DNA of 64,000 nt from a virus: IMG/VR virus record IMGVR_UViG_3300020048_000003, one strand, 5' to 3'. Position 1 is the stretch's first letter. Each line of letters starts with the position of its first letter. Shown here one piece after another: positions 315 to 23,857 of this stretch. The position numbers and the translations under genes were made by a program. The notes under the pieces were generated by a model. It had not been told where the DNA came from and ran no database searches. It saw only the letters and a list, made by a program, of their open reading frames with translations.

Positions 315-319
315 CAAAT

Positions 320-1309: not shown

Positions 1310-1313
1310 TATA

Positions 1314-1408
1314 TTGCAGATTAGAGAAGTGGCTGTAATCCAGAGAAGATACTTATCTCGTCCCCGCGCATGAAGGGGAAGAGCCGTGGTTCGATTCCAC
1401 GATCTGCG
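1314..1408 (+). tRNA. tRNA, type II (long variable arm), isotype unresolved
   Basis: T-arm CGTGG-TTCGATT-CCACG. Variable-arm hairpin TCCCC-GCGCATGAA-GGGGA. Acceptor 3' strand ATCTGCG. Confidence 0.45.
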
Positions 1409-1500
1409 ACAATTTGTTTTTAAGAGATAATTTTAAATAGTAAACCCTATCTTCATAAAAAACATGAAAGTGCTTCTGAAGAGATAAAAATGATAATGAG

Positions 1501-1974
1501 ATGAAATTTGGTGTAGCGATTTTGATAATTGAAAGTATGTTTCATAAAAGAGAAATAAAACTTAGTGGAATGGATTTCGGCTGGGGAAATGGGTATGTGT
1601 TATTACCAAAAAATCATCCTTTATATGGAGAAGATTATGATGCTGTTTCGGTTAATACTATTGATATTCATGGTGGATTAACTTATGGTTGTGAGTTTGA
1701 TTCAAATCATTTTATTAAATGGATAAATAGTAGAGAAATTGATGGTGATGTTACTATGAACAATTATCAGAAATTTAATGGTTATTGGATGTTTGGCTTT
1801 GATACTTCCCATTTGGGTGATAGTTTACTTACTTGTCCAAAATCATATGTTATGAGTCAGACCATCAATCTTTTAGAACAATGTATAAGTGATGATATAT
1901 ATAATATTCAAAAATATAAAAGATTCTATCAAAGAAAAGATAAATTAAAAAAGATAGATTTATTAAGTGAATAA
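1501..1974 (+). CDS. hypothetical protein, family A
   Basis: ORF track. C-terminal RKDKLKKIDLLSE tail. The stop abuts the tRNA at 1975. Confidence 0.5.
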   Translation: MKFGVAILIIESMFHKREIKLSGMDFGWGNGYVLLPKNHPLYGEDYDAVSVNTIDIHGGLTYGCEFDSNHFIKWINSREIDGDVTMNNYQKFNGYWMFGFDTSHLGDSLLTCPKSYVMSQTINLLEQCISDDIYNIQKYKRFYQRKDKLKKIDLLSE

Positions 1975-2053
1975 GCCTCTGTATTAGCCTTGTCTTCGAA
2001 ACAAGAGACGTATAATAGGAACGAAAATGTGGGTTCGAATCCCACCAGAGGTT
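1975..2053 (+). tRNA. tRNA-like gene, anticodon loop CTTCGAA (TCG, Arg?), reduced D-arm
   Basis: Acceptor GCCTCTG/CAGAGGT. Anticodon stem CTTGT/ACAAG. T-arm GTGGG-TTCGAAT-CCCAC. Confidence 0.45.
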
Positions 2054-2120
2054 CAACATCTTAATCTATGAAAATAGAAAAATACGAGTTTTAATTATTT
2101 ATATATAGAAATAAAACAAT

Positions 2121-3110
2121 ATGAATAATTTTAATTGTAAAATATGTGGAAAAGAATATCCATTATTATTAAGTTTTAGTAAACATTTAGCAAATAAACA
2201 TAAATATAATGGAGGATTAGTACAATATTATATTGATTATGAAAATTTCATAGTTCCTAAATGTATTTATTGTGATAATGAGGCTAAAAGAAAAGAAGGA
2301 TTAGAGTATAGAAAAACTTGTGGTGATAAAAATTGTATTAAAAAATTAAATATTAACAAAAAACACACAGAAGAAACAAAATCACAAATTAGTAAAAAAT
2401 TAATTGAGTCTCATAAAAAAGGTGAGCATTCTGGTTGGGATTTTATTAATAAGGATTTGAATAGAAGAAGTTATCCAGAAAAATGGTTCATTAAGAATGT
2501 ACTAGAAAAATATTCTTTTTATTACAAATATACAATAGAAGAAAAATTTCCTTTTGGTAAGTATTGGCTAGATTTTGCTATTATTGATATGAAAATTGAT
2601 ATAGAAATAGATGGTCAACAACATTTTAGAACGATTGATGCTATTGAACATGATAAAGAAAGAGATGAATTTGTGTTGAGTAAAGATTGGAAAGTATATA
2701 GAATTGCTTGGATTGAATTGAAAAATAATAGAGAAGATGTTGTTGATGATTTTTTAAATTGGATTGAACAAAATGAAATTAAATATCATAAATATGATGT
2801 TGATGAAATTGTTCATAAATTTAAAAAAAATAATTATCGAACTTATGATGTTAAAAAAATTAAACCATCAAAACATAAAAAATCTATTGAATATTTTTCA
2901 GATAGAAAAAATCAATATGATTTGAGGCAAATTCCTAATATAGAAAAAATTATTAATAGTGATATTGATTTTTCAAAAGAAGGTTGGGTAAAAAAGGTTT
3001 CTATTCTAATTGGTATATCAGAGAATAAAGGTTCGGGTTGGATGAAAAGAAACATGAATGAATTTTTTATTAATAATTGTTGGAAAAGAAAATCAAAGAA
3101 GGTCTTGTAG
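2121..3110 (+). CDS. homing-endonuclease-like protein (zinc-finger N-terminus, NUMOD3-like motif, C-terminal Vsr/DUF559-like endonuclease fold)
   Basis: CxxC...CxxC at the N-terminus. HTEETKSQISKKL resembles NUMOD3. IEIDGQQH...DKERDEFVLSKDWKVYRIAW resembles the DUF559/Vsr-like nuclease fold. The 3' end overlaps the tRNA at 3101. Confidence 0.5.
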   Translation: MNNFNCKICGKEYPLLLSFSKHLANKHKYNGGLVQYYIDYENFIVPKCIYCDNEAKRKEGLEYRKTCGDKNCIKKLNINKKHTEETKSQISKKLIESHKKGEHSGWDFINKDLNRRSYPEKWFIKNVLEKYSFYYKYTIEEKFPFGKYWLDFAIIDMKIDIEIDGQQHFRTIDAIEHDKERDEFVLSKDWKVYRIAWIELKNNREDVVDDFLNWIEQNEIKYHKYDVDEIVHKFKKNNYRTYDVKKIKPSKHKKSIEYFSDRKNQYDLRQIPNIEKIINSDIDFSKEGWVKKVSILIGISENKGSGWMKRNMNEFFINNCWKRKSKKVL

Positions 3111-3172
3111 TTCAACGGATAGAATTAAAATTTGCGGAATTTTAGATATGAGTTCGATTCTCATCAAGATCA
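3101..3172 (+). tRNA. tRNA (anticodon loop TTGCGGA, GCG, Arg?)
   Basis: Acceptor GGTCTTG/CAAGATC. T-arm ATGAG-TTCGATT-CTCAT. D-loop AACGGATAGA. Confidence 0.5.
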
Positions 3173-3197
3173 CAAAATTTAAGAATAAATTTAACAT

Positions 3198-3443
3198 ATG
3201 AAATATTGTCCAAGACATGGTGAAGTTGAGCCAGGATTTCTTTTAATAGAGACTTCTAGTGGTTCGTTTAGTATAGAACAAAATGATTGTCCAATTGACA
3301 ATTGTTTTGAAGATTGTTTTGATATGCCCTTATCAAATAGCACAAAAGAAGAACTTAAAATATATCAGAAGTATGTGGTACAATCTGAAAGAGTAGAAAA
3401 ACTTAAAAAACTCAAAAAATTTCCAAGATATTTTTTTTATTAA
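3198..3443 (+). CDS. small Cys-rich hypothetical protein, family A
   Basis: ORF track. C-terminal tail ...VEKLKKLKKF. Confidence 0.4.
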   Translation: MKYCPRHGEVEPGFLLIETSSGSFSIEQNDCPIDNCFEDCFDMPLSNSTKEELKIYQKYVVQSERVEKLKKLKKFPRYFFY

Positions 3444-3484
3444 AAACTTTTTTATACTTTTGTATTATAATTAATAAAATAAAT

Positions 3485-3567
3485 GCCCCGATGGTGAAAT
3501 AGGTAGACACGTAAGACTTAAAATCTTATTCTCATTGCGAGAGTGCCGGTCCGATTCCGGCTCGGGG
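3485..3567 (+). tRNA. tRNA-Leu (TAA)
   Basis: Acceptor GCCCCGA/TCGGGGT. D-arm GGTGAAATAGGTAGACAC. Anticodon stem TAAGA/TCTTA with loop CTTAAAA. Long variable arm. T-arm GCCGG-TCCGATT-CCGGC. Confidence 0.7.
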
Positions 3568-3678
3568 TACAAAATCAAAAATAGAAAAAACTTAATAAAA
3601 AATAATACTATATAATAATATGAAAAATATCTTAAACATAGTTCAACAACAACAGATTTAGGTCTGATTGGGTTAACT

Positions 3679-3951
3679 ATGTCTTTTTTTACCCAATCTC
3701 CTGAGGATTGGGTTTTTTATTTTAAAATAATTTGGAATATGGAAAATAATAAAGGAAGAAGAAATGAAATAACAAAATTAAAATGGAAGAAAAGAATTTC
3801 ATTTTTAAGAACACAATATAATGTTGAAGAACCTGCAAAATTATATTGCTATAAGACAACTGGAAAACCTTGTAGTTGTCCTATGTGTTCACCTTATAAA
3901 TATGATAGAAATGAAAAGCATAAAAAGAATTTTGAAGATGATGTTCAGTAA
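3679..3951 (+). CDS. small Cys-rich hypothetical protein
   Basis: ORF track. Confidence 0.35.
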   Translation: MSFFTQSPEDWVFYFKIIWNMENNKGRRNEITKLKWKKRISFLRTQYNVEEPAKLYCYKTTGKPCSCPMCSPYKYDRNEKHKKNFEDDVQ

Positions 3952-4000
3952 AAATGTGTTTTCATTTAAAATGAAAACGATAAAATAATGAACAAATATT

Positions 4001-4071
4001 GTCCTGTGGTGTAATTGGCTAGCACGAAACACTTTGACTGTTTTAGATAAAGTTCGAATCTTTACAGGACA
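4001..4071 (+). tRNA. tRNA-Gln (TTG)
   Basis: Acceptor GTCCTGT/ACAGGAC. Anticodon stem AAACA/TGTTT with loop CTTTGAC. Confidence 0.6.
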
Positions 4072-4077
4072 ACACAT

Positions 4078-4165
4078 TGACCTATGATGGAAAAGAGTAG
4101 ACATACCAGGTTTTGACCCTGGTGCCCCAACGGGTGTGAAGGTTCGAGTCCTTCTAGGTTAGCCA
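4078..4165 (+). tRNA. tRNA, type II, with a genomically encoded CCA; anticodon loop TTTTGAC
   Basis: Acceptor TGACCTA/TAGGTTA. Anticodon stem CCAGG/CCTGG. Variable-arm hairpin. T-arm GAAGG-TTCGAGT-CCTTC. Ends GCCA. Confidence 0.5.
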
Positions 4166-4168
4166 TAT

Positions 4169-4242
4169 TGACCCGTAGAATAATTGCGTAGTTCGTCACC
4201 CTTTGAAGGTGTATGGTATTGGTTCGAGTCCAATCCGGTCAA
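4169..4242 (+). tRNA. tRNA (anticodon loop CTTTGAA, TTG)
   Basis: Acceptor TGACCCG/CCGGTCA with one mismatch. T-arm ATTGG-TTCGAGT-CCAAT. Confidence 0.5.
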
Positions 4243-4247
4243 CATAT

Positions 4248-4321
4248 TATCCAATAGCACAATCGGTGGTTGCAACTGCCTCTGAAGCAGTAGGTTATAG
4301 GTTCAAGTCCTATTTGGATAA
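4248..4321 (+). tRNA. tRNA-Gln (CTG)
   Basis: Acceptor TATCCAA/TTGGATA. Anticodon stem ACTGC/GCAGT with loop CTCTGAA. T-arm ATAGG-TTCAAGT-CCTAT. Confidence 0.55.
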
Positions 4322-4324
4322 CTT

Positions 4325-4384: not shown

Positions 4385-4975
4385 ATGGAAGTTAGACCGA
4401 TTTTTGAGGTTAAGAGTACGATTGATCAGACGGAATATTACTGGTTTCAAGATGCTTTTTCGGAGGAGGAGTTAATTTGGATGGATAATTTGAAAGAATT
4501 ATTTCCTTATGAAGTTGCATCTATTGTTGGTGATACTGGTTATGTTGATTCTGTTAGAAAGTCTAAAATAAAGTGGATTACTTTGGATGATACAACTCTT
4601 TGGGTTTATGATAAGTTGAAAAATTTTGCAATTGAGGCGAATAATACGATATGGGATTTTGATTTGCGTTCAATAGTGGATCCGATTCAATATACTGAGT
4701 ATAATGAGGGAGGTGATCATTATGATTGGCATCTTGACATAGGACCTGCGAGTATTAATCATAGGAAAATAAGTATAGTAGTTCAGTTGTCGGATCCTGA
4801 TGATTATGATGGTGGTGATTTTGAATTATATTGTGGTGGTGAGTTTAAGAGGTTGCCTAAGTTAAAGGGTTGTGCTATTTTATTCCCAAGTTTCTTATTA
4901 CATCGTGTTACTCCAGTTACGAGGGGAATTAGAAAGACGTTAGTTCTTTGGATTGGTGGAGGAAGTTTCAAATAA
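4385..4975 (+). CDS. 2OG-Fe(II) oxygenase family protein (prolyl-hydroxylase-like)
   Basis: HxD...H triad: DWHLD and LHRVTP, plus RKTLVLW. Confidence 0.6.
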   Translation: MEVRPIFEVKSTIDQTEYYWFQDAFSEEELIWMDNLKELFPYEVASIVGDTGYVDSVRKSKIKWITLDDTTLWVYDKLKNFAIEANNTIWDFDLRSIVDPIQYTEYNEGGDHYDWHLDIGPASINHRKISIVVQLSDPDDYDGGDFELYCGGEFKRLPKLKGCAILFPSFLLHRVTPVTRGIRKTLVLWIGGGSFK

Positions 4976-7315: not shown

Positions 7316-7842
7316 TTAGATTTCTCACTTGGAAATTGAAATTGGTTTTTATTTGAGGATTTTAAAGCAGAATTATTTCTTTTTATAAATTTAGCGGAAT
7401 ATGAGTTTGTATATTCCTGACTAACTTCTTTACCATCAAGATAAACAATATATTCTCCTGTTTCGTATAGTGTATCGTTTTCAATTTTAGATTTTACATT
7501 GAAAAAGTACATTTTTGTTTTTGAGCAAGTTGCGGTAGAATCGCCACCTTCAATTATATAATCTCTGTATATGAGATAATCATCATTTACATGTGCGCTT
7601 ATAATGATAAAAGGAGCATCTGAAATGATGATGTTAAGCATATCAAAGTCATATGAAATTCTTCTAACTGAAGTTGTTGTATCTTCAAAAAACCCTGTGT
7701 AGATTGTGTTCATACCTTTAGGGTTTGGATTATCTTGTTCGCTTGCCCATTCGCCAATAAATTTATTATACGTTGGTTCTTTTGAACATCCGATAGTAGT
7801 AGTTAGTACTAGGATAAATAGTATTTTAATGAGATTTTTCAT
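7303..7842 (-). CDS. putative lipoprotein
   Basis: Signal peptide ending LTTTIGC, a lipobox-like Cys. The upstream gene ends in the family A motif. Confidence 0.5.
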   Translation of the reverse strand: MKNLIKILFILVLTTTIGCSKEPTYNKFIGEWASEQDNPNPKGMNTIYTGFFEDTTTSVRRISYDFDMLNIIISDAPFIIISAHVNDDYLIYRDYIIEGGDSTATCSKTKMYFFNVKSKIENDTLYETGEYIVYLDGKEVSQEYTNSYSAKFIKRNNSALKSSNKNQFQFPSEKSKWLN

Positions 7843-8132
7843 AAGTTTTTTATTTTTTGGAGTTTTTCTTTTCTTAATTGTATTCTTATTTCTTTTAATG
7901 TGTTTTCAAATTCAGCACCTGGACAAACATTAGCATGAAACCATTCTTTTTTTGAATACCAATGTCTTTTATATCTTATTTGATGTCTAATGTTTAAACA
8001 ATTACTATTATTTGGTATACCATACTCAATAATTTTAATATCATCTAATGATATTGATTTTCTTGTATAATCATTAGATTTCTGAATATATCTTTTCAAT
8101 TCGTCTATTGAGTGTGGAGTTTTGTTTAGCAT
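7839..8132 (-). CDS. hypothetical protein, family A
   Basis: C-terminal LRKEKLQKIKNL overlaps the next start. Confidence 0.45.
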   Translation of the reverse strand: MLNKTPHSIDELKRYIQKSNDYTRKSISLDDIKIIEYGIPNNSNCLNIRHQIRYKRHWYSKKEWFHANVCPGAEFENTLKEIRIQLRKEKLQKIKNL

Positions 8133-8545
8133 TGTTTTAATTGTTTAAGTTTTAGGTATCTTTCTGCTTGTTGTAAATCTTCATTCAATACAAAATAAAA
8201 TGGGTCATACCAAATTTCGTTTTGATTATTTATTTCATTTTCTAATTCATCCCAAAATTTACCATTTGTTTGAAAGATGTATAATTTATTTTTTTTAAAT
8301 GTAAATGTTTCAAACAATGGTTTACGTTTCTCGGCATATTTATTATAATTATGATTTGAACGATGATAAATCATGTTATCACCTGAAAAATCAACATAAT
8401 CACAATTTGATGAAAGGTTAAAATTTTTGAAATTTTTTACATATGAAGTTTCTTCAAAATTTTCATCAACTATTATGTTTATAATACTATTTCTCAAATG
8501 ATAAACATCACCATATTTTTTGAATAATTTAGTCTCCATACGCAT
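8126..8545 (-). CDS. hypothetical protein
   Basis: ORF track. Confidence 0.45.
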   Translation of the reverse strand: MRMETKLFKKYGDVYHLRNSIINIIVDENFEETSYVKNFKNFNLSSNCDYVDFSGDNMIYHRSNHNYNKYAEKRKPLFETFTFKKNKLYIFQTNGKFWDELENEINNQNEIWYDPFYFVLNEDLQQAERYLKLKQLKQC

Positions 8546-8756
8546 CTGCCTTATAAAAAATAATATCCATTATAAGAGTCTGAAAAAATGCACAAAAAAC
8601 TGGTATTGTTAAAATATCATGTATTGTAATATTTGGTGTTTCTGCCGCCCATATCCAAAAACAAGCATAAATCAAATAACTAAACACAAACATAAATCCA
8701 ACCCATATAACTCTAAAACTTTGCCATTTTGTAAAGTATCTTTTTATAGTTTTCAT
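8529..8756 (-). CDS. small membrane protein
   Basis: Two hydrophobic helices. Confidence 0.4.
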   Translation of the reverse strand: MKTIKRYFTKWQSFRVIWVGFMFVFSYLIYACFWIWAAETPNITIHDILTIPVFCAFFQTLIMDIIFYKADAYGD

Positions 8757-8761
8757 AGTTT

Positions 8762-8953
8762 TTAATATATTGAGATTATATTTTCGGGATAAACTAACAT
8801 AACATCTGGAGTATCAAAGTCCATATCCATATCATCTTTTTCAAGTTTTACTAAATACATATCATGGTGATTATTTCCGTTTCTTACTTTGTCGTAAACT
8901 ATACCTGTATAGTCACAATCGTCAATTCTAAAAGTTATTTTTCTACCTATCAT
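8762..8953 (-). CDS. hypothetical protein
   Basis: ORF track. Confidence 0.35.
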   Translation of the reverse strand: MIGRKITFRIDDCDYTGIVYDKVRNGNNHHDMYLVKLEKDDMDMDFDTPDVMLVYPENIISIY

Positions 8954-8981
8954 AATTTTATTTTATTTTGAATACAAATAT

Positions 8982-9335
8982 ATGCTTTTTTTGTTTATAA
9001 AAAAATTATATATACAAAAAAAAGTTATTCTTATGAAGAATGTTAGAAGTTATGAATCTTTTGATTTTAATTTTGATGAAGATAGTAGTAGAGTTTATGG
9101 TAAAAATACCTTTGAAGTAACTGTAAATGGTATTCCATTAGCAGTTGAGGGAGAGGTTATAGAAGGTAGTAAGGGTGATAGAGATACACCTGGTGTTACT
9201 GATTCTTTTGAAATATCAAAAATTTACATGTTTGATGAAGATGATCAAGAGGTAGAAGCAACACCTCAAGAATTAAAGGGTTTAGGTATATCTTATGATG
9301 ATATTGAATTTGAGGTACTTAATCAGATTGATTAA
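8982..9335 (+). CDS. acidic hypothetical protein
   Basis: ORF track. Confidence 0.4.
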   Translation: MLFLFIKKLYIQKKVILMKNVRSYESFDFNFDEDSSRVYGKNTFEVTVNGIPLAVEGEVIEGSKGDRDTPGVTDSFEISKIYMFDEDDQEVEATPQELKGLGISYDDIEFEVLNQID

Positions 9336-9526
9336 TGAATACCCAGATACCAAACACCTTTAATTTTTTCAAATTTATATTGAATTTTATCTTTCTTCAA
9401 CATGTTATCAAATGGTTTAATATCTGATTTCCATTTATCACCACGGGCGACAATTTCTTTAATATGAATATAAACTTGTTCAACATTCAAATTTTCAAAT
9501 TTCAAATTTCTTAGTTTTTTTAACAT
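9332..9526 (-). CDS. hypothetical protein
   Basis: ORF track. Confidence 0.35.
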   Translation of the reverse strand: MLKKLRNLKFENLNVEQVYIHIKEIVARGDKWKSDIKPFDNMLKKDKIQYKFEKIKGVWYLGIH

Positions 9527-9528
9527 TT

Positions 9529-9870
9529 TTATAGGGTTTTTTTAAGTTCTTCAATTTCTTTTTCGTGTCTTTTTATTTCTGATAATTTTGCTTTGTAATC
9601 TTTTTCTAATGATTGTTCATAAGTTTCTCTGAAATTTTGAATAATATTCCAAAGACCCCAGACTATGCAGAGTACCATAACGGCTGAGAAAAAATAGATA
9701 TCAAATCTAGTAAATAGATTTGTACTATTGTATGGTGGAATAAAATATAAACAGGTTGCACTTCCAACAACGTAAAATGACCATAAAAATATACTGAATA
9801 TTTTTAGTACAGTATATTTTCTTTTACTTTGCACATTTACTACTTTATATCTACTTTGCATAATCTTCAT
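9529..9870 (-). CDS. membrane protein with a coiled-coil tail
   Basis: Two transmembrane helices followed by a charged C-terminus. Confidence 0.45.
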   Translation of the reverse strand: MKIMQSRYKVVNVQSKRKYTVLKIFSIFLWSFYVVGSATCLYFIPPYNSTNLFTRFDIYFFSAVMVLCIVWGLWNIIQNFRETYEQSLEKDYKAKLSEIKRHEKEIEELKKTL

Positions 9871-10204
9871 ATTTTACTAGTTGCTTTTTTGTTTCTTCTA
9901 TTGCGTTATCACAATTTTTAATACCATTTTCTTTTGATTTAATTTCTTTTTGAAAATCTTCTTTTGTTCTTTCATAGAATATAATTCTTCCTTCTAAATA
10001 TTTCTTGTAGGTTGTTTTTGAGACTGAAAACATTGCATAAAATCCAGCAAAAGCACAGAATAATATAAGAAATTTTATAACGCCCATAGTTGGATCAGGA
10101 TTAAAATTTAACCATATGAACAATCCAAATGCTGAGAATCCGTAGATAAGACAAAACATTATCTTCAAAACTTTATCTGCTGTGAAACTTTCTAAACTTC
10201 TCAT
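9851..10204 (-). CDS. membrane protein, paralog-like of 9529..9870
   Basis: Similar architecture: two transmembrane helices and a KE-rich tail. Confidence 0.45.
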   Translation of the reverse strand: MRSLESFTADKVLKIMFCLIYGFSAFGLFIWLNFNPDPTMGVIKFLILFCAFAGFYAMFSVSKTTYKKYLEGRIIFYERTKEDFQKEIKSKENGIKNCDNAIEETKKQLVKYEDYAK

Positions 10205-10542
10205 TTTTTTCTTATAATTAAATCTTCATCAATAAAATCATGACTATATTTACCATTATCAAGTTTGTATTTGATACGGTATTTTTTTGTATTTTCATCA
10301 AATACAAGAGGTTCATCAAATGGCGGAAACATATCTACCATACCAAATAGCGTATCTATGTCTTTTTCACCTGGTACAGTAAAATAGACATAGTCACCAT
10401 TTTTATATTTTGGTTCAACTTTTTGTGGTTCTGGTTTAGGTTCAGAACATGCGGCTAACAATAATATTGTTATAAAGGTTAAGAGAATTTTATTTATCAT
10501 CTTCGTTTGAGTATTTGACATAAATATCACTATCAATGTCAC
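10201..10542 (-). CDS. putative lipoprotein
   Basis: MINKILLTFITILLLAACSEPKPEP: signal peptide plus lipobox Cys. Confidence 0.5.
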   Translation of the reverse strand: MTLIVIFMSNTQTKMINKILLTFITILLLAACSEPKPEPQKVEPKYKNGDYVYFTVPGEKDIDTLFGMVDMFPPFDEPLVFDENTKKYRIKYKLDNGKYSHDFIDEDLIIRKK

Positions 10543-10681
10543 GGTTTTTTAACATTTTTTTAAGTAAATCTTCTTTTGTCCTTTTTGCAGAATTTTCTGA
10601 AATTGCGTGCATTTGTGCAAAGAGACTAATTCCACCAAACAACAGTACAAGTGCCATAAGTAAGTAATATCCAGTTCCCAT
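10490..10681 (-). CDS. small membrane protein
   Basis: ORF track. One transmembrane helix. Confidence 0.35.
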   Translation of the reverse strand: MGTGYYLLMALVLLFGGISLFAQMHAISENSAKRTKEDLLKKMLKNRDIDSDIYVKYSNEDDK

Positions 10682-10708
10682 AGTTTTTAAGTTTTTTTAT
10701 AGTTTATT

Positions 10709-10873
10709 ATCGTGTCATTTCAAGTGCGTCCTCAAGAGAGAAATTCAATTCTACTTTATCGGTAAAAAAATCAGCTTTTTCAGCATCGGTGAGATCATTG
10801 ATTGTCATAGAAGGTTTTACACCACATTCAATCATTTTTGATTCAACTTCAAAATTTTCAGTATAGTTTGTCA
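10709..10873 (-). CDS. small acidic hypothetical protein (55 aa; not in the ORF track)
   Basis: Hand translation gives MTNYTENFEVESKMIECGV.... A class-1 promoter element lies directly upstream at 10913-10926. Confidence 0.35.
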
Positions 10874-10945
10874 TAGTTTTGTAGATTAAAGTGATTAGTA
10901 ATTCGTTAACAATGCAAAGATACGGATTTTACCCGGAAGAAAAAA

Positions 10946-11152
10946 TTACTTCAATTTTTGAAATTCTTTGTAAATAGCAATATCACAAAAAATATTTATT
11001 ATTGTTGCGACACTTCCAATTATTGTTAAAGATGGAAAATAAAGAAATCCTTTGGTGAATCCAATATAAAGTACTGGAAATGTGTATATTATATGCACAA
11101 GTATAGATACTAGTATAAGTGCTTTTAAAATAAGTTTGTTATAATTATCCAT
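10946..11152 (-). CDS. small membrane protein
   Basis: ORF track. Two transmembrane helices. Confidence 0.4.
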   Translation of the reverse strand: MDNYNKLILKALILVSILVHIIYTFPVLYIGFTKGFLYFPSLTIIGSVATIINIFCDIAIYKEFQKLK

Positions 11153-11501
11153 TAGTTATTTTTTTTAGAAAAAATGCATCTTTTTTTGAAGTTCTCACAA
11201 AAACTAAGTGGCTTAATATTTCTGTGAGTTCGCTTTTAATATTACAATCCATTAAATTATCAATTCCAAAGACTAAAATTTGATTTTTAAATTTCTCATT
11301 TCCAATTAGTTTTGCAATTGTACCACCTGCTTCAAGTATTTTTGGTATTATAGTTTCATCTTTTAATGTTTCAAGTTCAATATTTAATTCAATATCATTT
11401 TTTATAATTTCACCGTTCACAATGATTTGTGAATTTTTCATTCTTGCTTTTATGTCGTTAGCAAATAATCCGTGTATTTTTAAAATTTCTGAGAGTTTCA
11501 T
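11145..11501 (-). CDS. hypothetical protein
   Basis: ORF track. A class-1 promoter element lies immediately upstream. Confidence 0.45.
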   Translation of the reverse strand: MKLSEILKIHGLFANDIKARMKNSQIIVNGEIIKNDIELNIELETLKDETIIPKILEAGGTIAKLIGNEKFKNQILVFGIDNLMDCNIKSELTEILSHLVFVRTSKKDAFFLKKITNG

Positions 11502-11531
11502 AATGCAAAGATATGCAAAAGTTTAAAATAA

Positions 11532-11562
11532 AAAAAGTGGACTAAAAAATCCACTTTTTTTG
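11532..11562 (-). terminator. rho-independent terminator after the TonB receptor gene
   Basis: GTGGA-loop-TCCAC hairpin with a T-run on the minus strand. Confidence 0.45.
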
Positions 11563-11577
11563 TTTTCAATGAAGAAA

Positions 11578-14500
11578 TTAGAAAATATAACGTACTCCAA
11601 CTTGTGCTCCCCAAGTACTTTGAGTTGAAAGTACAGGTGTGAATGTTGATGTTGGTAATGAAGAACCAGTATAATTCATTTGATAATGAGGAATACCATC
11701 TGTTCCAGTTTTACTCATTTTTAATAAAGTAATATCATATGAACCTAAGGTTTGTTTTTGATAGATACCCCAACTTGAGTTTAGTAAATTTCCAACATTT
11801 AATAAATCTAAGCTTATTTGTAATGTTTGTCTTTTATTATTTTTACCTACTCCTGTAAATATATCTTGTAAAAGTTTTACATCAAATCTATTTACCCAAG
11901 GCATAATAACACCATATCTCTCAGCATATTGTCCTTTGTTTTCTGATAAGTATTCATCTTGATCAACATAAGCCCAGAAAGCAGCATTTTGTTCTTCTGA
12001 TGTAAATATTGTTTCAAATGTACCATCTGCTAATTTTTTAGTAATAGGATCAAAAATTATTTCGGACTCATCTTTAGGAATATACATAAGGTCAGCGGCA
12101 TTACCATCACCGTTCATGTCATTTGAATAGATATAATCTAAACGACCTTGGCTACTACCTTGATATACTAATGATACTGAAGTTCCTAAATGTTTAAGAT
12201 ATTCTTTATGATAAGTTACTGAACCTATAACTCTGTTAGGTACAGCGAATTGTGAATAACTTAATTCTAAAGCATTTTGACTTGCTACTGTTGGATTGCT
12301 TGCCCATGCTGATGATGCTGCGGAACCTGGATTTGAAGTAAAGTCTTTTACACCAAAGTGTGTATAAGCAATAAAGCCACTAAATCCATTTTGGAATTGT
12401 TTACTTAACTGTGCGGTTAATGAATATGAGTATCCATTTTCAATTGAAAGTTCATTAGTTAGAACCATTGCGTTGCTAACTCCTGGATTGATTTTGCGAG
12501 TAGCAGAGAAGTATCTTGGTCGCATATCTGGACCATTGAATGTTGCGGTGCTATCTTTTTGGTTTGCATTATATTGAATAACATCATTGATATTATTTGA
12601 ATACATACCTTCAAATGTTCCAACAATACCCCAAGGTAATTTAACATCAACTGCTAAATTAGTTCTCCAAACTTGTGGCATTTTGAATTTTGGATCAACA
12701 ACAGCAATAGAGCCAGGTGCAACACTTGATGGTTGACTTGGAAATAATGTTGTGTTGGATAAGTGATAGAAAGGATCTGGATTGAAAGTTAAATCTACTA
12801 ATTGAGCAGCTTTTGTAACTTCAACTGTGTTTTGTAGAGTTCCAGAATTTGTTGGTTGGTTTGTGAACCATACAAATGGTAATCTACCTGTAAAAACTCC
12901 TGAACCTCCTCGTACTTGAAGTGATTTATCTCCCTTAACATCCCAGTTAAAACTTACTCTAGGAGAGAAGGTGGGTTTGGATTCGGGCCATTTGCCAGCA
13001 TCTAATGTTAAATCTTCACCATTTAAATCTTTGAAAGTTAAATCTGTGATTGATGGATTAGGAATTAAATTATCAAAATATATTGGTAGTTCAATTCTTA
13101 AGCCTGCTGTTACTTTCAAATTATCTAAAATTTGAATTTCATCTTGTCCATAAAGAGCAGCGTAGCCAAAGGTTAATTCAGCATATCCATTTCCTGCGCC
13201 TTCATAAGGATAAGTTAGACCAAATGTAGTAGGAATTCCACCATTATAAAAATCATCCATAGATGCATATCTATAATAGCTTGTTCCATATCTTTTGTAA
13301 CTATTAGCAAAATACATTTGATCATAAGATGCACCTATTGTAAATGTGTGCATTCCCATATAATAGTTATAGTTATTAATAAAAGTTAATGTGTTATTTT
13401 TTACATCATTATCTTTTGTAAATAATTCATAACCAAATGACATGTAAGGATCTCCATCTTTATAAATATCAACAAATGGAAAAGGTGAACTGTTACTATT
13501 TCTAGTATCTTGAATTTTAGTATAAGTAAATAAGAATTTATTTGCAGATTTACCCCAAACACTATTTAATTCTGCTGATACTGAACCTACTGTATTAAGA
13601 AATCCATAATTAGAATTACTGAATGCCATAGATTTTTCTCCAATACGACCAAATGTTGAACGAGTTCCTGGTGCACTTGTTGCATTAACTTGTTGATCGT
13701 TAGTTGATTCAACATAGTTATATCTAACAGCGAATTTGTGATGTTGGTTAATATTCCAATCAATTTTTCCTAAAATTTTGTAATTATTACTTTCAAAATT
13801 TCCAAAATTTTGATAACTTCCAGCATCATATTGATATGTATTTTTGAGATAATCACTCATAACTGACATATCAGTAGCAGTTGTTCTAGAAATATAATTC
13901 GCAGCATCTGGTTCAATACCATTTTCTGGATCGCTTACACTCCAAGGAATTCCTGGATATGATGATTTTTCCTTTTCTGCGTTAAAGAATATAAATAATT
14001 TATTCTTTATAATTGGTCCTCCTACTGATGCTCCGTAACTAAGTGTACTTTGATCGGTTAGTGTTAACTCTTTATCTTCTACTTTTTTTCCATTGAAGGA
14101 TTTATCACGGAAATAAGTATAAGCGGTTCCTTTCCATTCGTTAGTACCACTTTTAGTAACAGCATTAATATTTGCACCTGTAAAATTTGACTGTCTAATA
14201 TCAAATGGTGCGACATTTACGCTAATTTCTTCAATAGCATCTAAACTAATTGGTTGTGCATCACCACCTGGTAGTGATTTTGTGCTTAGTCCGAAGTTGT
14301 TGTTGAAGTTTGCACCGTCAACTGTGATGTTATTGTATCTTCCATCACGACCTGCAAAACTGGTTCCGTTGGATTGTGGTGTCATTTTAGTGAAATCTGT
14401 AATACTTCTATTGATAGAAGGTAATGCTTTGATTTCAGCCAAATTGATGTTTGTTGATGCTCCAGTTTTATTACCATCAATTAATTGATTTTTTTGTGCT

Positions 14501-14925
14501 GTTACTTCAACACCTGTAATTTCACTGGCATTTTGAGATAGTGTTTCATTTAATCCTAGTGTTTGTCCTAAGTTTAAATTGATATTTTCCTCAACAATTG
14601 GTTTGTAGCCAACGTAGGATATGGTTAGTGTGTAAGGTCCTCCAACTTTTAAGTTAGTAATTCGGTAGAGCCCATCCACATCTGTAACTGTGCCGTATTG
14701 TGTTCCTGTTGGAACATGAACTAATACAACACTTGCACCTGGCAATGAGACTTTGTTTTCTCCATATATCTTACCACTTATACCTGAAGTGGTAACTTGA
14801 GCAAACATTATCAAACTGCTAAATGAGAACAATAGAAAAAAGATTAATCTTTTTAGGTTTTTTGTCATAGTTTTGATTTTTTTTTTGACTTCCCGCGGAA
14901 TTACGAGAGTTATCATTTTTATCAA
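11578..14925 (-). CDS. TonB-dependent outer-membrane receptor (Bacteroidetes type: CarbopepD_reg N-domain, plug, 22-strand barrel)
   Basis: Signal peptide. N-terminal domain VTTSGISGKIYGENKVSLPGASVVLVHVPTGTQYGTVTDVDGLYRI. Plug-like region. C-terminus ends ...VGVRYIF. GC is noticeably higher than flanking DNA. Confidence 0.85.
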   Translation of the reverse strand: MIKMITLVIPREVKKKIKTMTKNLKRLIFFLLFSFSSLIMFAQVTTSGISGKIYGENKVSLPGASVVLVHVPTGTQYGTVTDVDGLYRITNLKVGGPYTLTISYVGYKPIVEENINLNLGQTLGLNETLSQNASEITGVEVTAQKNQLIDGNKTGASTNINLAEIKALPSINRSITDFTKMTPQSNGTSFAGRDGRYNNITVDGANFNNNFGLSTKSLPGGDAQPISLDAIEEISVNVAPFDIRQSNFTGANINAVTKSGTNEWKGTAYTYFRDKSFNGKKVEDKELTLTDQSTLSYGASVGGPIIKNKLFIFFNAEKEKSSYPGIPWSVSDPENGIEPDAANYISRTTATDMSVMSDYLKNTYQYDAGSYQNFGNFESNNYKILGKIDWNINQHHKFAVRYNYVESTNDQQVNATSAPGTRSTFGRIGEKSMAFSNSNYGFLNTVGSVSAELNSVWGKSANKFLFTYTKIQDTRNSNSSPFPFVDIYKDGDPYMSFGYELFTKDNDVKNNTLTFINNYNYYMGMHTFTIGASYDQMYFANSYKRYGTSYYRYASMDDFYNGGIPTTFGLTYPYEGAGNGYAELTFGYAALYGQDEIQILDNLKVTAGLRIELPIYFDNLIPNPSITDLTFKDLNGEDLTLDAGKWPESKPTFSPRVSFNWDVKGDKSLQVRGGSGVFTGRLPFVWFTNQPTNSGTLQNTVEVTKAAQLVDLTFNPDPFYHLSNTTLFPSQPSSVAPGSIAVVDPKFKMPQVWRTNLAVDVKLPWGIVGTFEGMYSNNINDVIQYNANQKDSTATFNGPDMRPRYFSATRKINPGVSNAMVLTNELSIENGYSYSLTAQLSKQFQNGFSGFIAYTHFGVKDFTSNPGSAASSAWASNPTVASQNALELSYSQFAVPNRVIGSVTYHKEYLKHLGTSVSLVYQGSSQGRLDYIYSNDMNGDGNAADLMYIPKDESEIIFDPITKKLADGTFETIFTSEEQNAAFWAYVDQDEYLSENKGQYAERYGVIMPWVNRFDVKLLQDIFTGVGKNNKRQTLQISLDLLNVGNLLNSSWGIYQKQTLGSYDITLLKMSKTGTDGIPHYQMNYTGSSLPTSTFTPVLSTQSTWGAQVGVRYIF

Positions 14926-14975
14926 AAAATAAACAAAAAGTTTTAAAAAGATTAATCTTTTAATACTTGCTGATA

Positions 14976-15362
14976 TTATTCACCATCATAATCATCAACA
15001 ATCTTGATGCCAAGTTCAATTTCAATTGTGTTAAGTTTTTCAACTTTTTCTTTTTCGGTTTCGTATGTTTCCACTATTGCTGATAAAACATCACGAAGTG
15101 ATTTGAATTCTTTTCTTGAAAGAAAGTTTTCAACTTTCTTTTCTGTTTCTATGTCATTACTTAAAGAGTAAAATCTATCAAGAATACCATGTAAAAGATG
15201 TATTTGCTCATTGGTTTTAAGTGATAGTGTTTTTTTAACAGCATCATCCAAATCTAATGTTGAAAAATCTTCTTCTTTTTCAACATTTAATGTGTTTTTA
15301 ATTAAATCCAATTCGGATTGTGGTGTTTCAGCGTAAAAAGTGTATGTTCCTTCGGTTATCAT
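14976..15362 (-). CDS. acidic hypothetical protein
   Basis: ORF track. Confidence 0.45.
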   Translation of the reverse strand: MITEGTYTFYAETPQSELDLIKNTLNVEKEEDFSTLDLDDAVKKTLSLKTNEQIHLLHGILDRFYSLSNDIETEKKVENFLSRKEFKSLRDVLSAIVETYETEKEKVEKLNTIEIELGIKIVDDYDGE

Positions 15363-15382
15363 TTTATTTTATTTTTTAATGT

Positions 15383-15796
15383 TTATACATTAGTATTATC
15401 TTCGGTTGATTCTGTTGGTGTTACAGGTATAATAGGTGTTATCGTTGTTAAACTGTCGTTTAAATGATAAAGTTGGTTCAGATGCAGCGAATTTTCTTTT
15501 GTTGATGCAGGATCAACAGGTGTTACAGTGCTATTACTTTTTGCTTTTTCTGCCTCAATTAAATCCCATACTTCTTTAAAAACCATATCAGATTTAAATG
15601 CGGCAATAACGTAAGCTATCAGAACAATATTCATAAAAATTAAACAAATTAATATCATATGAAATATTGATGTTTTTGGTACCATATAAAGTGCGGCAAC
15701 AAGCCATCCGGTCATTATTAGTCCACGATATACGTTTTGTTCAAGATTTTTTACAATCTCAATAACTGTTGATGTTTTTAATTTTTCTATTTTCAT
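15383..15796 (-). CDS. membrane protein
   Basis: Two transmembrane helices and a Thr/Pro-rich tail. Confidence 0.45.
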   Translation of the reverse strand: MKIEKLKTSTVIEIVKNLEQNVYRGLIMTGWLVAALYMVPKTSIFHMILICLIFMNIVLIAYVIAAFKSDMVFKEVWDLIEAEKAKSNSTVTPVDPASTKENSLHLNQLYHLNDSLTTITPIIPVTPTESTEDNTNV

Positions 15797-16125
15797 TAGT
15801 TTTTTTGTTTAATTGTCATTGCTATTGGATAAGAGGAACTTCTACCTTCTACAATATATAATGTATCAGCATCACAAGTATATTGATATATAATACCAAA
15901 CTGTTCAGAATTAGATTTACTAATCAGTTTGAAGTTATTTGGAATTTCAATCTTTTTTTCTTCGGGTTTTTCTTCAGATTCAACTGATTTGCAGCCTGTT
16001 AAAAAACTTGCTAATCCAAATAGAACTAGAAAAAATATTAATGCAAATAAAATAGATGCTCTTCCGTGAAAAACATTTGCTCGTTTTTGATTGTAATCAA
16101 TCATTTCTTTTAATTCTTTTTCCAT
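15796..16125 (-). CDS. membrane protein
   Basis: One transmembrane helix near the N-terminus. Confidence 0.4.
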   Translation of the reverse strand: MEKELKEMIDYNQKRANVFHGRASILFALIFFLVLFGLASFLTGCKSVESEEKPEEKKIEIPNNFKLISKSNSEQFGIIYQYTCDADTLYIVEGRSSSYPIAMTIKQKN

Positions 16126-16354
16126 ATTATTTATTTTTAGTGTGTTCTAACATTTCGTATACTGTGTACAATGCCACAAGAATTGGCAACATCCATATTA
16201 TTTCCATTAAAGTGATTTTATAAGTTTATTCCTATCATTTACGATTTTTTCAATGAGTTTTTTATTATCATTAGAAAATTTAATCTGAACTACAACATAA
16301 GTTATAATTGCAATTATTGCTAATGATATTGGTATCCAAATTAAAATGTCCATA

Positions 16355-16678
16355 TTATTTTTTATTTTTTGTTTCTAAAAAGGTGTACGCTGCAATTATT
16401 TTCTGCATTTGAGCAGTAGTATTAACGCCTGGATTTTTATCTGGATGCCATTTCATAGCCATTTTGCGATATGCTTTCTTTATTTCAGCAAATGTAGCGC
16501 CAACTTCAATACCAAGAATAAAATATGGGTCATCCACACCAAGAACTGTTACCGCTTCTTCATAACCCATTCTTTGATTAAATGCTTTTTTCCATTGTGA
16601 AGCATCACCATAACCATCAACTGAAGGATTATAAGTTTTATATCCATCCATAAATCCCTTTTTTGCTTTTGTTGTCAT
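16355..16678 (-). CDS. J-domain (DnaJ-like) co-chaperone
   Basis: [33 protein letters not shown] with the HPD motif. Confidence 0.75.
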
Positions 16679-17935: not shown

Positions 17936-18709
17936 CTATTTTTTACTCCAAGTTTCAAATTCTTTTACTATTTCTAATAATTTTGGATCCAATTTTTCAT
18001 ATGCTTCATCTGAAATTGAGGTTGGTATTCCATAAAATGCTTGTGCTATTCCACCAGCCATACAACCTGTTGTATCGCAATCACCACCTAACCATATAGT
18101 TAGACGAATACAATCTTCGTAATTTTTACTTTCCAAGAAACATACAATTGCTTCTGGTACAGAACCTTGACAAGTTTCTTGAAACCAATAATCTGGTTTC
18201 CGTTCGGCAATAGTTGTATCAAGGTCGTAATCAAAATTATTTTCAATATAATTTTTTATTTCTTGTTTACCTTGTCCAGTTCTTGCTAAGAAGATAGCAG
18301 CGGCAATTGCTTGTGCGCCTTTAATTCCTTCTGGGTGATTATGTGTAACTTCGGCACTTTTCTTTGCCATTTCCAATGTTTTTTCCAATGTATCATAGGC
18401 AAATCCAATTGGACTAATTCGCATTGCGGAGCCATTACCAAAACTATTGTATGGTTGTGGATCTGAGAAATCTATCCATTTTTTGAACATTCCGCCATAT
18501 CCAGCATTTCGGAACATTCTTGCATATTTTTGATATGTTTCTGTGAAATCTAAGTTGTGCATTATACAATCTGCTGTTGCTACGGATAAAACTGTATCAT
18601 CAGTAAATTTAGATTTTTCAGAAAAAAGTGGAAAATCATTTTTTTCACCTTTCCAATTTTTGAATTCATATACGGAGCCTATAATATCTCCTGCGATTGC
18701 ACCTATCAT
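17936..18709 (-). CDS. ADP-ribosylglycohydrolase (DraG/ARH family)
   Basis: MIGAIAGDIIGS...TDDT...GGDCDTTGCMAGGIAQAFYG match the family signatures. Confidence 0.7.
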   Translation of the reverse strand: MIGAIAGDIIGSVYEFKNWKGEKNDFPLFSEKSKFTDDTVLSVATADCIMHNLDFTETYQKYARMFRNAGYGGMFKKWIDFSDPQPYNSFGNGSAMRISPIGFAYDTLEKTLEMAKKSAEVTHNHPEGIKGAQAIAAAIFLARTGQGKQEIKNYIENNFDYDLDTTIAERKPDYWFQETCQGSVPEAIVCFLESKNYEDCIRLTIWLGGDCDTTGCMAGGIAQAFYGIPTSISDEAYEKLDPKLLEIVKEFETWSKK

Positions 18710-19732: not shown

Positions 19733-19746
19733 TGCAAAGATACGGA
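19733..19746 (-). promoter_or_regulatory. class-1 promoter element (coding strand CCGTATCTTTGCATT; -7 box TAnnTTTG)
   Basis: One of about 11 copies of TGCAAAGATACGG on the plus strand, each 15-40 nt upstream of a minus-strand start codon. Confidence 0.5.
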
Positions 19747-21677: not shown

Positions 21678-22685
21678 TTATTGAAAAGTTTGATTATTTA
21701 TTACAGGATTTTCGTTTATATTAAGTACATTTACTGTTACTGTTGCTGAACTTGATAGAGCCGGTGTACCATTATCAATTACTTTAATCACTAATGCGAA
21801 AGATGGTGTTGTTTCATAATCAAGTTGAGAAGGATTAGTTACAAGTAATGCACCTGTTGCGGCATTTATAGAGAATGTGCCACCCGTATTTCCAGACTCA
21901 ATTGAGAAAGTTTTTGTTTGTCCAGCATCAGGATCAGTGGTGACAATAGTTCCAACTAATGTGGCATTTGCAGAATTTTCATTCACATTAAATGTTTGAT
22001 TATTAATAACTGGTGTTTCGTTTACATTAAGTATATTAACTGTAATTGTTGCTTGTGCAGATAGTGGTACAGTTGCATTGTCTTGTACTTTTACAACAAT
22101 AGGAATGGATTGAACTGTTTCATAATTCAATATTGGAGAATTAAAAACTGTTAATACTCCTGATGTTGCGTTTATTGCAAATACTCCTCCAGTGTTTCCT
22201 GATACGATAGAATATGTTTTTGTTTGTCTTGCTTCTGGGTCCGTAGCAACTACGGTACCAATTACTGTACTATTTGATGAATTTTCATTTATACTAAATG
22301 TTTGAGGTGCAATACTTGGCACAGTATTATATTCATTTAATGTGATAAGATAAGTAGAAAATTTAGGATCTGGTAGACCATTTGTTGTACCATTATCTAA
22401 TAGTTTAAGTGTGAAAGTAAATGTAGTTAATGTACTATTATTTATTGCTGTAGCGTCATTTACAAATATATCACCAAGTGTATTTTTCCATAGTGTCTGT
22501 GTTTCTACTATACTCCAAGTAATTGTGTTATTTTCAGGATCACAACCTGTAAAATGTTCAACTTGTAAGTTGGCTGTTACTGGTTTATAGAAATTTATTG
22601 GTTTTACTACATATGTAGGACATATAGTTTGACTGAAGCCAATGAATGACATTAGCATTAAGATGATTGTAAATAATTTTTTCAT
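21678..22685 (-). CDS. secreted cadherin-like repeat protein
   Basis: Signal peptide. Tandem ~95-aa repeats containing SGNTGGVFAINATSGVLTV..NYETVQS, a cadherin-like L.YE signature. Confidence 0.55.
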   Translation of the reverse strand: MKKLFTIILMLMSFIGFSQTICPTYVVKPINFYKPVTANLQVEHFTGCDPENNTITWSIVETQTLWKNTLGDIFVNDATAINNSTLTTFTFTLKLLDNGTTNGLPDPKFSTYLITLNEYNTVPSIAPQTFSINENSSNSTVIGTVVATDPEARQTKTYSIVSGNTGGVFAINATSGVLTVFNSPILNYETVQSIPIVVKVQDNATVPLSAQATITVNILNVNETPVINNQTFNVNENSANATLVGTIVTTDPDAGQTKTFSIESGNTGGTFSINAATGALLVTNPSQLDYETTPSFALVIKVIDNGTPALSSSATVTVNVLNINENPVINNQTFQ

Positions 22686-23371: not shown

Positions 23372-23857
23372 TTAATAATTTTGAGTAAGAACTAATTTAT
23401 ATGCAACATTATAAACTCTGCTACCGTGATTGCTACAACTTGATGGATGAAGGGGTTTTCTACATTTATGATATGTAGCACCACATACAGGACAAGTTAA
23501 GGTGTATTTTACAATTTTTTTAAGAGACTTTGCACGACCTTCTTCACCATCTTTATATTTTTCAGCGCCATGACAACGTTTTCCATCACCACCAAGTTCT
23601 ATACATTTGGCTTTCCAAACTTTATCATGATTGTGTATAGGAGTTAATGCGTGTGCAATTTCGTGTAAGATAGTATCTTTGATTGCCCAATCAGTCATTA
23701 AAGGAACAAGATATTGAGAAAGTTCAATTTGTTTATCGGTGTAATCACAACAACCGAAGGCTCTTTTCCTTCTATTGGTAGTTACAGTCCAATTTTTCAA
23801 TTCGCTATGATTTTTCAGTAAATTTTTTGTTAGTGTAATTGCCTGATTTATAGTCAT
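23372..23857 (-). CDS. SprT-like zinc metalloprotease with a C-terminal zinc ribbon
   Basis: HEIAHAL HExxH motif. C-terminal CPVCGATYHKC...C..H. Confidence 0.55.
   Translation of the reverse strand: MTINQAITLTKNLLKNHSELKNWTVTTNRRKRAFGCCDYTDKQIELSQYLVPLMTDWAIKDTILHEIAHALTPIHNHDKVWKAKCIELGGDGKRCHGAEKYKDGEEGRAKSLKKIVKYTLTCPVCGATYHKCRKPLHPSSCSNHGSRVYNVAYKLVLTQNY

Follow-up and report, generated by a model that had tools for sequence, protein, structure and literature searches.

Phages are known to encode host-type envelope and uptake proteins, among them the porin Lc of the lambdoid phage PA-2, Lom and Bor of lambda, and the PstS protein of cyanophages. The protein described here resembles these in being a host-type protein encoded by a phage and presumably made in the infected cell, but they belong to the porins, the small outer-membrane proteins and the periplasmic binding proteins, whereas it is predicted to be an energised, gated 22-strand transporter that relies on the TonB complex of the host. 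Its gene lies at 11578-14868 on the minus strand of a 64,000-nucleotide stretch of viral DNA (IMG/VR record IMGVR_UViG_3300020048_000003; the whole stretch is called the window below), and its product is referred to as the receptor. The receptor has the same Oar architecture as Oar of Myxococcus xanthus (MXAN_1450), a protein needed for TonB-dependent secretion of the protease PopC, and this architecture is the dominant type among the TonB-dependent transporters of Bacteroidetes (PMC6434023). We find that the receptor is an intact, host-derived transporter of Oar architecture that has long been resident in a huge-phage-like genome, is under purifying selection and recurs in other large-phage lineages.

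A preliminary description of the window had given a 1115-residue gene at 11578-14925. The open reading frame is indeed uninterrupted over 11578..14925 (minus strand) and reaches a TTG upstream of the ATG at 14868. This ATG is backed by three gene calls and by alignment with 41 homologues and gives a product of 1096 residues plus stop, and the same 1096-residue product is called in the ENA, JGI and Logan assemblies; the TTG at 14925 is probably not the start. Also reported was the complete architecture of a TonB-dependent receptor, of which the signal peptide, CarboxypepD_reg domain, barrel and final phenylalanine were recovered while the plug fell below the Pfam threshold. The putative signal peptide (residues 1-24, MTKNLKRLIFFLLFSFSSLIMFAQ, 14797..14868; this and all following receptor features are on the minus strand) was read from the translation by inspection and would be cleaved before VTTSG. 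Residues Q24, V25 and T26, which span the junction between AQ and V, are invariant in 42 homologues, and since the leader has no cysteine the receptor should not be a lipoprotein. The CarboxypepD_reg N-terminal extension (residues ~30-110, 14539..14781) was assigned from Pfam and from a structural model, with scores of 67.7 bits for PF13620 and 49.6 bits for PF13715, both exceeding the Pfam gathering scores. A candidate TonB box, EITGVEVTAQ (residues ~116-125, 14494..14523), recognised by motif only, lies in a flexible linker; its G-V-x-[VI]-x motif is retained in phage and bacterial copies. The divergent plug (residues ~138-245, 14134..14457) gave a weak match to PF07715 when the region was searched in isolation (18.3 bits, cut-off 23.9, E 0.0033). 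It is nevertheless the most conserved region of the receptor, with 82-85% identity among copies and many invariant residues between 154 and 243, and the plug of a homologue from another phage group, the L018 group described below, does exceed the cut-off (27.3 bits). The rest of the protein (11581..14133) is assigned to the beta-barrel by the model and by PF25183 (OMP_b-brl_4), which scores 160 bits, above its cut-off; the classical barrel model PF00593 stays sub-threshold (21.2 bits against 27). The barrel ends in VRYIF, read by inspection, and the C-terminal aromatic residue F1096 is invariant in 42 homologues.

The AlphaFold2 model of the receptor was built from 42 sequences, with strands assigned by DSSP, and reached a predicted local distance difference test score (pLDDT) of 81.6 and a predicted template modelling score of 0.78. 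In the model the CarboxypepD_reg domain is all-beta (pLDDT 83-87), residues 114-128 around the candidate TonB box have pLDDT <50, fitting a disordered linker, and the plug region is mixed alpha/beta. The barrel has 22 long strands connected by ten 2-6-residue turns, which would be periplasmic, and by eleven longer loops of up to 84 residues, which would be extracellular. Full-length Foldseek matches included FusA, YddB, PirA and PfeA (E 1e-39 to 1e-31), the best being FusA (4zgv, E 6e-39) and YddB (6ofr, E 6e-37) with target-normalised TM-scores of 0.66-0.70. Sequence and model thus place the receptor as an ordinary member of the TonB-dependent transporter superfamily with a predicted Oar architecture of CarboxypepD_reg extension, plug and 22-strand barrel. 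Searches of solved structures by sequence returned only a 52-residue match to 6ytc, a fragment of an N-terminal extension.

Within this superfamily the nearest folds do not name a substrate. FusA and YddB are only 11-13% identical to the receptor, lack its N-terminal extension and are 250-340 residues shorter, so that their substrates are not transferable to it. SusC/RagA proteins are likewise Bacteroidota transporters with a CarboxypepD_reg-type domain, and SusC structures are among the weaker fold matches. The receptor differs from them in having no adjacent SusD-like gene, either in the phage or in 83 bacterial loci, and in having no NCBIfam family match at E ≤ 0.01, hence no match to a SusC/RagA-type model either. 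Membership of SusC/RagA is not supported, given the missing family match and the stand-alone position of the gene in those 83 loci. One viral relative of the same superfamily had been deposited earlier, A0A8D9FQQ5, annotated as "TonB-dependent receptor SusC [uncultured marine phage]". It has its full-length fold in common with the receptor but comprises 805 residues, is 10% identical and carries a SusC-type annotation, and it shows that phage-associated receptors of this superfamily had already been deposited.

The homologues of the receptor number in the thousands. Genomic context was looked up for ten of them, four of which proved phage-like and six bacterial chromosomal. The chromosomal orthologues are 74% (P0004), 71% (P0011), 69% (P0026), 68% (P0016), 67% (P0031) and 63% (P0046) identical to the receptor, P0046 sitting on a 3.75-Mb contig, and in most of the six loci the gene order is thioredoxin, thioredoxin, WbqC, 7TMR-HD, NlpC/P60, receptor. 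The nearest species-representative genomes in GTDB are metagenome-assembled genomes (MAGs) of Lentimicrobiaceae (70%), and orthologues at 41-52% identity occur across many Bacteroidota orders; that of Bacteroides pyogenes is 46% identical. The Bacteroidales proteins (P0004, P0011, P0016, P0031 and those of the Lentimicrobiaceae MAGs) share 63-74% identity over the full length with the receptor, along with its domains, TonB-box and plug motifs and C-terminus. They differ in setting: the bacterial copies belong to a conserved locus of housekeeping type and have a guanine-plus-cytosine (GC) content at third codon positions (GC3) of 0.35-0.61, and the window copy sits among small phage genes with a GC3 of 0.166. 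The earlier assignment to a Bacteroidetes-type receptor therefore holds, as the receptor is nested among Bacteroidales orthologues at up to 74% identity, and it was apparently captured from a Bacteroidales host lineage whose nearest named relatives are Lentimicrobiaceae. When the neighbours in the 83 bacterial loci were clustered, no gene family occurred in more than 10 loci; a Phosphodiest (PF01663) neighbour of loci L007 and L012 was present in 8 of the 83. The bacterial receptor thus stands alone, lacking a SusD-like or any other constant partner, and its substrate is not readable from context. Database searches and a phylogeny, proposed beforehand as a way to donor and substrate class, accordingly pointed to a Bacteroidales/Lentimicrobiaceae donor and named no substrate.

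The likeness to Oar raises the further possibility of outward transport, in which the barrel would release a phage or host protein such as a depolymerase or lysis factor. The receptor has the domain architecture of Oar, which is required for PopC secretion (PMC6434023), but because that architecture is dominant in Bacteroidetes it is not diagnostic of export. The shown role of Oar is protein secretion, whereas nothing in the window points to export, and the receptor has no conserved neighbouring gene, either in phages or in bacteria, that would be a candidate for its cargo. We regard outward transport as very improbable.

Several lines of evidence place the receptor gene in a phage genome. The window holds ~118 genes in 64 kb (1.8 genes/kb) with a median size of ~110 residues, 11 tRNA genes at 49-4322, including four tandem tRNA-Gln genes, and proteins with PHROG or Pfam matches to SSB, a DEAD-box helicase, UvdE, several DNA methyltransferases and a tail-family Ig-domain protein. 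Several further products match phage-only families that have no assigned role, and no housekeeping genes were seen in the window. Among reference sequences the helicase is closest to those of T4-like cyanophages (27-30% identity); used as a query against IMG/VR it recovered no relative, and a megablast search of 25 kb of the window against reference phages gave no match. The Bacteroidota -7 promoter element TAnnTTTG occurs at 170 sites in the window against 129 +/- 12 expected, a number that no shuffle reached, and this over-representation fits a Bacteroidota host. Phage-like genes flank the receptor for more than 11 kb on one side and ~49 kb on the other within the window. Neither the window (30 proteins compared with PHROGs) nor the next 8.5 kb contains a capsid, portal or terminase gene; apart from genes for an RNA ligase, methyltransferases and an ankyrin protein, the 8.5 kb hold nothing but tiny genes that lack annotation. 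The evidence that the window is part of a huge-phage genome is strong, and the proof is incomplete. The receptor had been called phage-borne, and this stands as far as the phage-like genes on both sides go, with no virion hallmark gene in the 64 kb or the 8.5 kb beyond.

We therefore weighed whether the gene might belong to a host chromosome or another mobile element, or to a chimeric assembly in which phage and host DNA were fused at the gene. Besides the missing capsid, portal and terminase genes, such an origin would find support in the overall GC content of the receptor gene, which is above that of its surroundings (32.6% against 27.0% for the window). A GC-richer block at 9332-16125 had been reported, which could be read as a sign of foreign origin. 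Only the receptor gene bears out the higher GC, as the genes flanking it in the block have 27.0% GC, like the window, against 26.6% in the rest of the window, and several other window genes match or exceed the receptor in GC. The excess lies at codon positions 1 and 2 (GC2 0.399, z 1.5), whereas the receptor's GC3 is at the phage norm (z 0.2, against a window mean of 0.156 +/- 0.044) and far from that of the bacterial orthologues, whose loci have 38-49% GC. The apparent block thus reflects the amino-acid composition of one barrel protein, and the idea of a GC-rich foreign island was rejected. The receptor moreover occurs with largely the same neighbours on three contigs (20-50 kb, 209 kb and 287 kb) from different assemblies, ~50 kb from the nearer end of the 209-kb contig; among these assemblies is the ENA one (ERZ27262924, contig k141_278361). 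The same junctions in three independent assemblies, together with phage-like third positions, speak against a chimera at the block edges, and neither a chimeric assembly nor a recent insertion of the receptor is likely. A 74%-identical copy (P0005) lies on an IMG/VR viral contig, phage-like genes extend for tens of kilobases on either side, and the bacterial orthologues have a quite different, conserved chromosomal context. An origin outside a phage genome is, in our judgement, scarcely credible. Virome pipelines would tend to drop such a gene as host contamination; the GC3 comparison places it in the phage genome. The composition of FYMINK against GARP residues was also tried as a classifier of phage and bacterial copies and was dropped because the ranges overlap.

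Related phage-like copies are intact. P0002 (locus L002) is 84% identical to the receptor and lies among small unannotated genes with ART-PolyVal, ClpX and DUF7487 proteins; P0005 (L003-L005 and L013, IMG/VR contig UViG_3300009776_000018) is 74% identical; and P0007 (L010 and L011), at 71%, adjoins a phage-lysozyme-domain protein and a TnpB gene. Among the four phage-borne copies the ratio of nonsynonymous to synonymous divergence (dN/dS, Nei-Gojobori) is 0.09-0.16, values that are approximate because dS, at 1.1-1.8, is near saturation. Decay of the gene into a pseudogene in related phages, which would have spoken against the initial proposal, is thereby excluded. When identity was calculated per region on the model topology, the phage copies kept the extension, plug (0.83-0.85), strands, turns and loops as bacteria do. 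Phage and bacterial copies compared with each other show a loop identity of 0.70-0.71, against 0.68 between bacteria, and the ratio of loop to strand divergence is 0.94 for phage-phage, 1.07 for phage-bacterium and 1.15 for bacterium-bacterium pairs. Nothing in this comparison hints that the phage copies have a remodelled surface or are decaying as transporters. Seventeen positions that are invariant in eight bacterial orthologues are changed in the window protein, mostly by conservative replacement or in two short insertions.

The phylogeny, a bootstrapped neighbour-joining tree with 100 replicates, is a simple method applied to short deep branches. The window receptor clusters with P0002 and P0003 at 100% bootstrap and P0007 clusters with the bacterial P0016 at 64%, and in 0 of the 100 replicates were the four phage copies monophyletic to the exclusion of the known bacterial copies. 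As an AT-driven composition should artificially join phage copies, this lack of monophyly is a conservative result. By nonsynonymous distance L010 is nearest to the bacterial L007 (0.154) and L003 to the Lentimicrobiaceae locus L042 (0.173). At least two host-to-phage transfers are likely from these relationships. L002 and L003 have a DUF7487 gene at equal offset from the receptor, pointing to vertical inheritance within this pair, and the window has nothing else in common locally with L002 or L003 beyond the receptor.

Such a gene might also be a neutral passenger, picked up by illegitimate recombination or by a nearby mobile element and without a role for the phage. Huge phages carry many host-derived genes, and TnpB/IS605-type genes lie near the receptor in two loci: TnpB/IS605 OrfB-type genes are found at 18250-19470 of L002, ~5 kb from the receptor, and at 13863-15089 of L010, ~0.6 kb downstream of it. 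The proteins are 28% identical to each other, and such elements could have been the vehicle for the receptor gene. But the third codon positions are fully adjusted to the phage composition, dN/dS is ~0.1, and intact copies persist in several diverged phage lineages, including the large clade described next. A role-free passenger is therefore quite improbable.

The receptor family is not confined to this lineage. Searching IMG/VR with motifs conserved in the family brought up 28 loci, which include two further phage groups whose receptors share one architecture. In the L018-type group (L015-L022, L031 and L034) the receptor is ~36% identical to the window protein and lies on contigs of 133-274 kb whose gene density is phage-like and which encode a phage-type helicase and an RNA ligase resembling T4 gp63. 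Its position is syntenic between two members, and it sits between the helicase module and a P-loop NTPase gene in L016, L018, L031 and L034. A search with one member of this group found at least 120 clusters at the 90% identity level, 82-97% identical, on contigs of up to 299 kb, some clusters holding hundreds of member sequences. In the second group, of mid-sized phages (L024-L029 and L037-L040; ~30% identity, contigs of 78-105 kb), the receptor lies within a replication module of DnaB helicase, ribonucleotide reductase and DNA polymerase, directly after the ribonucleotide reductase gene in L025. These receptors form their own clade of ~30 clusters. Their nearest cellular homologues are at most 45% identical, which suggests an old acquisition, and the nearest named cellular matches are non-Bacteroidota (a Gemmatimonadaceae bacterium and Lentimonas). 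One further contig labelled viral (L006/L030, IMGVR_UViG_3300029356_000132) has a receptor with 46% identity and a GC content of 0.36 in surroundings of 0.43-0.44 with large neighbouring genes, and may be bacterial DNA or a prophage flank and not phage.

In reference collections the family is scarce. A tblastn search of the receptor against reference phages found only two unannotated human-gut "Bacteriophage sp." contigs (25-34% identity), no PHROG family matches the receptor, and BFVD contains a single full-length viral protein with its fold, A0A8D9FQQ5 (E 4e-38). That outer-membrane receptors are rarely phage-encoded, as first stated, agrees with these searches. A search of the literature, in which the text of the 2020 huge-phage survey was also checked, brought up no account of a TonB-dependent transporter encoded by a phage; one paper names a phage ExbB as a putative auxiliary gene. 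The recurrent, conserved presence of this receptor family in large phages appears to be previously undescribed.

As to function, we favour an auxiliary transport gene that would keep up or raise the activity of the host orthologue during phage replication, a reading to which we give slightly less than an even chance. It is favoured because every functional element, loops included, is conserved as in the cellular proteins, and the equal conservation of the loops in phage and bacterial copies leans towards retained transport and not an altered surface. The receptor would be exported through the host Sec system by means of its signal peptide, inserted in the outer membrane by the host BAM complex via the C-terminal phenylalanine signal, and energised through the TonB box by the host TonB-ExbBD complex, and it would then do the same job as the host's conserved stand-alone orthologue. 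Most likely it would supplement the host's own transporter during infection. Several points weigh against this, among them the virion hallmark genes missing from the sequence examined, the sub-threshold plug match of the window copy and the near-saturated dS. The expression, localisation and substrate of the receptor and its benefit to the phage are inferred, and uptake in particular is suggested by the predicted fold alone, with no neighbour conserved across the 83 bacterial loci. Outer-membrane proteins are stable, and the host has an orthologue of its own; what the phage would gain from an extra copy is not obvious. Finally, the 107-nt intergenic region upstream of the receptor (14869..14975, minus strand) contains no TAnnTTTG element.

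TonB-dependent transporters are classic phage and bacteriocin receptors, and the phage copy might instead remodel the cell surface for competition, altering the susceptibility of the infected cell to bacteriocins or to other phages. Should the host orthologue be a receptor, the phage copy could displace or out-compete it; the phage copy could also titrate a limited TonB pool and so block the TonB-dependent entry of competitors, and the small membrane proteins and lipoproteins encoded nearby could contribute to exclusion. The candidate TonB box is kept, TonB-dependent receptors have been proposed, from docking only, as targets of Crassvirales tail spikes, and the receptor lies in a block where genes for small membrane proteins and lipoproteins are significantly enriched. 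Of the 11 other genes in 9332-16125, seven encode a hydrophobic segment or lipobox, against 5 of 102 in the remainder of the window (Fisher p 2e-5), and with the limits set at 8529-16353 the count is 9 of 15 (Fisher p 9e-7). The enrichment first noted is thus real, though the number inside 9332-16125 is seven and not the "at least 8" that had been given. On the other side, phage loops are no more diverged than those of bacterial orthologues, so the surface shown by the phage version would be that of the host protein; in other phages the receptor is not accompanied by the membrane-gene block; and a 1096-residue transporter is costly compared with the known small exclusion proteins. Surface remodelling is in our view unlikely.

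The membrane genes of the block, assigned by hydropathy and lipobox scans, are all on the minus strand. Those at 9529-9870 and 9851-10204 encode proteins with two transmembrane segments and charged coiled-coil tails that are weakly similar to each other (28% identity, E 9e-5). They are followed by a putative lipoprotein with an LLAAC lipobox (10201-10521), a protein with one transmembrane segment (10490-10681) and one with two (10946-11152). Upstream of the receptor lie genes for a transmembrane protein with a Pro/Thr-rich tail (15383-15796), a transmembrane or lipoprotein-like product with LTGC (15796-16125) and a 48-residue protein with one transmembrane segment (16207-16353). None of the flanking small proteins matched Pfam or PHROGs above noise, and no relatives of ExbB, ExbD, TonB or SusD were found among the genes flanking the receptor. 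When 32 window proteins were compared by tblastn with the other phage-like loci, only the receptor was recovered and the flanking genes were not co-conserved. The suggestion that these proteins are Sus-like partners fails, as they are 48-137 residues long, none is SusD-sized or matches a family, and they are not found beside the receptor in other phages. The layout of 9529-10521 resembles a spanin- or holin-like lysis cassette; an Rz-like spanin was considered and rejected, the PHROG match being at noise level (E 0.003) and confined to the lipoprotein signal region. We regard the flanking membrane genes as a separate, lineage-specific, envelope-directed set, for which exclusion or lysis functions are speculation.

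The transcription unit of the receptor appears to end at a terminator-like hairpin with a U-run, found by sequence and RNA folding 18 nt past the stop codon (11531..11560, minus strand). The hairpin has a free energy of -16.4 kcal/mol (z -4.6), and none of 200 shuffles was equally stable. Exact TATCTTTGCA motifs, which contain TAnnTTTG, lie from a few to ~40 nt upstream of start codons at 10913-10922, 11504-11513, 19733-19742 and 60081-60090 (all minus strand), so that the terminator and promoter-like TATCTTTGCA motifs stand between the receptor and the downstream genes. The receptor gene may be co-transcribed with upstream genes or have a promoter of its own. A sigma-70 promoter and terminator scan found fewer promoter-like sites than in shuffles and missed the hairpin, which folding confirmed.

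Several other features of the window and of related loci were recorded. Some of the tRNA predictions are unusually long (86-96 nt) and one tRNA-Tyr has the anticodon ATA; introns or odd variable arms could account for these, or the genes could be mispredicted. At least four DNA methyltransferase-type genes lie in ~70 kb (phrog_56, N6_N4_Mtase, Eco57I-like and MethyltransfD12; window 47295-48242, 51310-52128 and 61072-62547, and L123 5-847), which suggests heavy investment against restriction. Near the receptor are host-interaction-type genes for a DnaJ-domain protein (16355-16678), an ADP-ribosylglycohydrolase (17936-18709), a signal-peptide cadherin-repeat protein (21678-22685) and a SprT-like protease (23372-23857). 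The window also has iron-related genes for a ferritin (PF00210, 20375-20887, plus strand) and a 2-oxoglutarate-Fe(II) oxygenase (4385-4975, plus strand), and in L002 a rubrerythrin gene (7651-7956) lies 2 kb upstream of the receptor. Together with the adjacent ribonucleotide reductase in L025 and the FusA fold, these are weak hints of a link between the receptor and iron, which we leave outside our verdict. A few small window proteins (63405-63689, and L123 5101-5439) have their only detected relatives, at 30-35% identity, in L023, an AT-rich IMG/VR contig whose receptor is 37% identical and belongs to another branch of the family. Distantly related phages may thus carry different receptor lineages.

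Taken more widely, these results lead us to a tentative proposal, to which we would give clearly less than an even chance: large phages of Bacteroidota and of some other Gram-negative hosts have repeatedly captured, and long kept, one stand-alone transporter of Oar architecture with which they would control an energised step of outer-membrane transport during infection. Known phage auxiliary genes act mainly in cytoplasmic metabolism, with a few of periplasmic or porin type, and a TonB-dependent transporter would add active outer-membrane transport. If the proposal is true, such genes would make up a class of phage auxiliary genes, active at the outer membrane, that has not been described so far. 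That several unrelated large-phage lineages keep the gene under purifying selection suggests that it meets a need common to long-cycle phages in diderm hosts. The conserved stand-alone Bacteroidota transporter, with its unusually well conserved loops, is itself worth characterising, and, if the proposal holds, the phage copies would open a way to learn what this transporter does, for which the searches made here found orthologues in many Bacteroidota orders.

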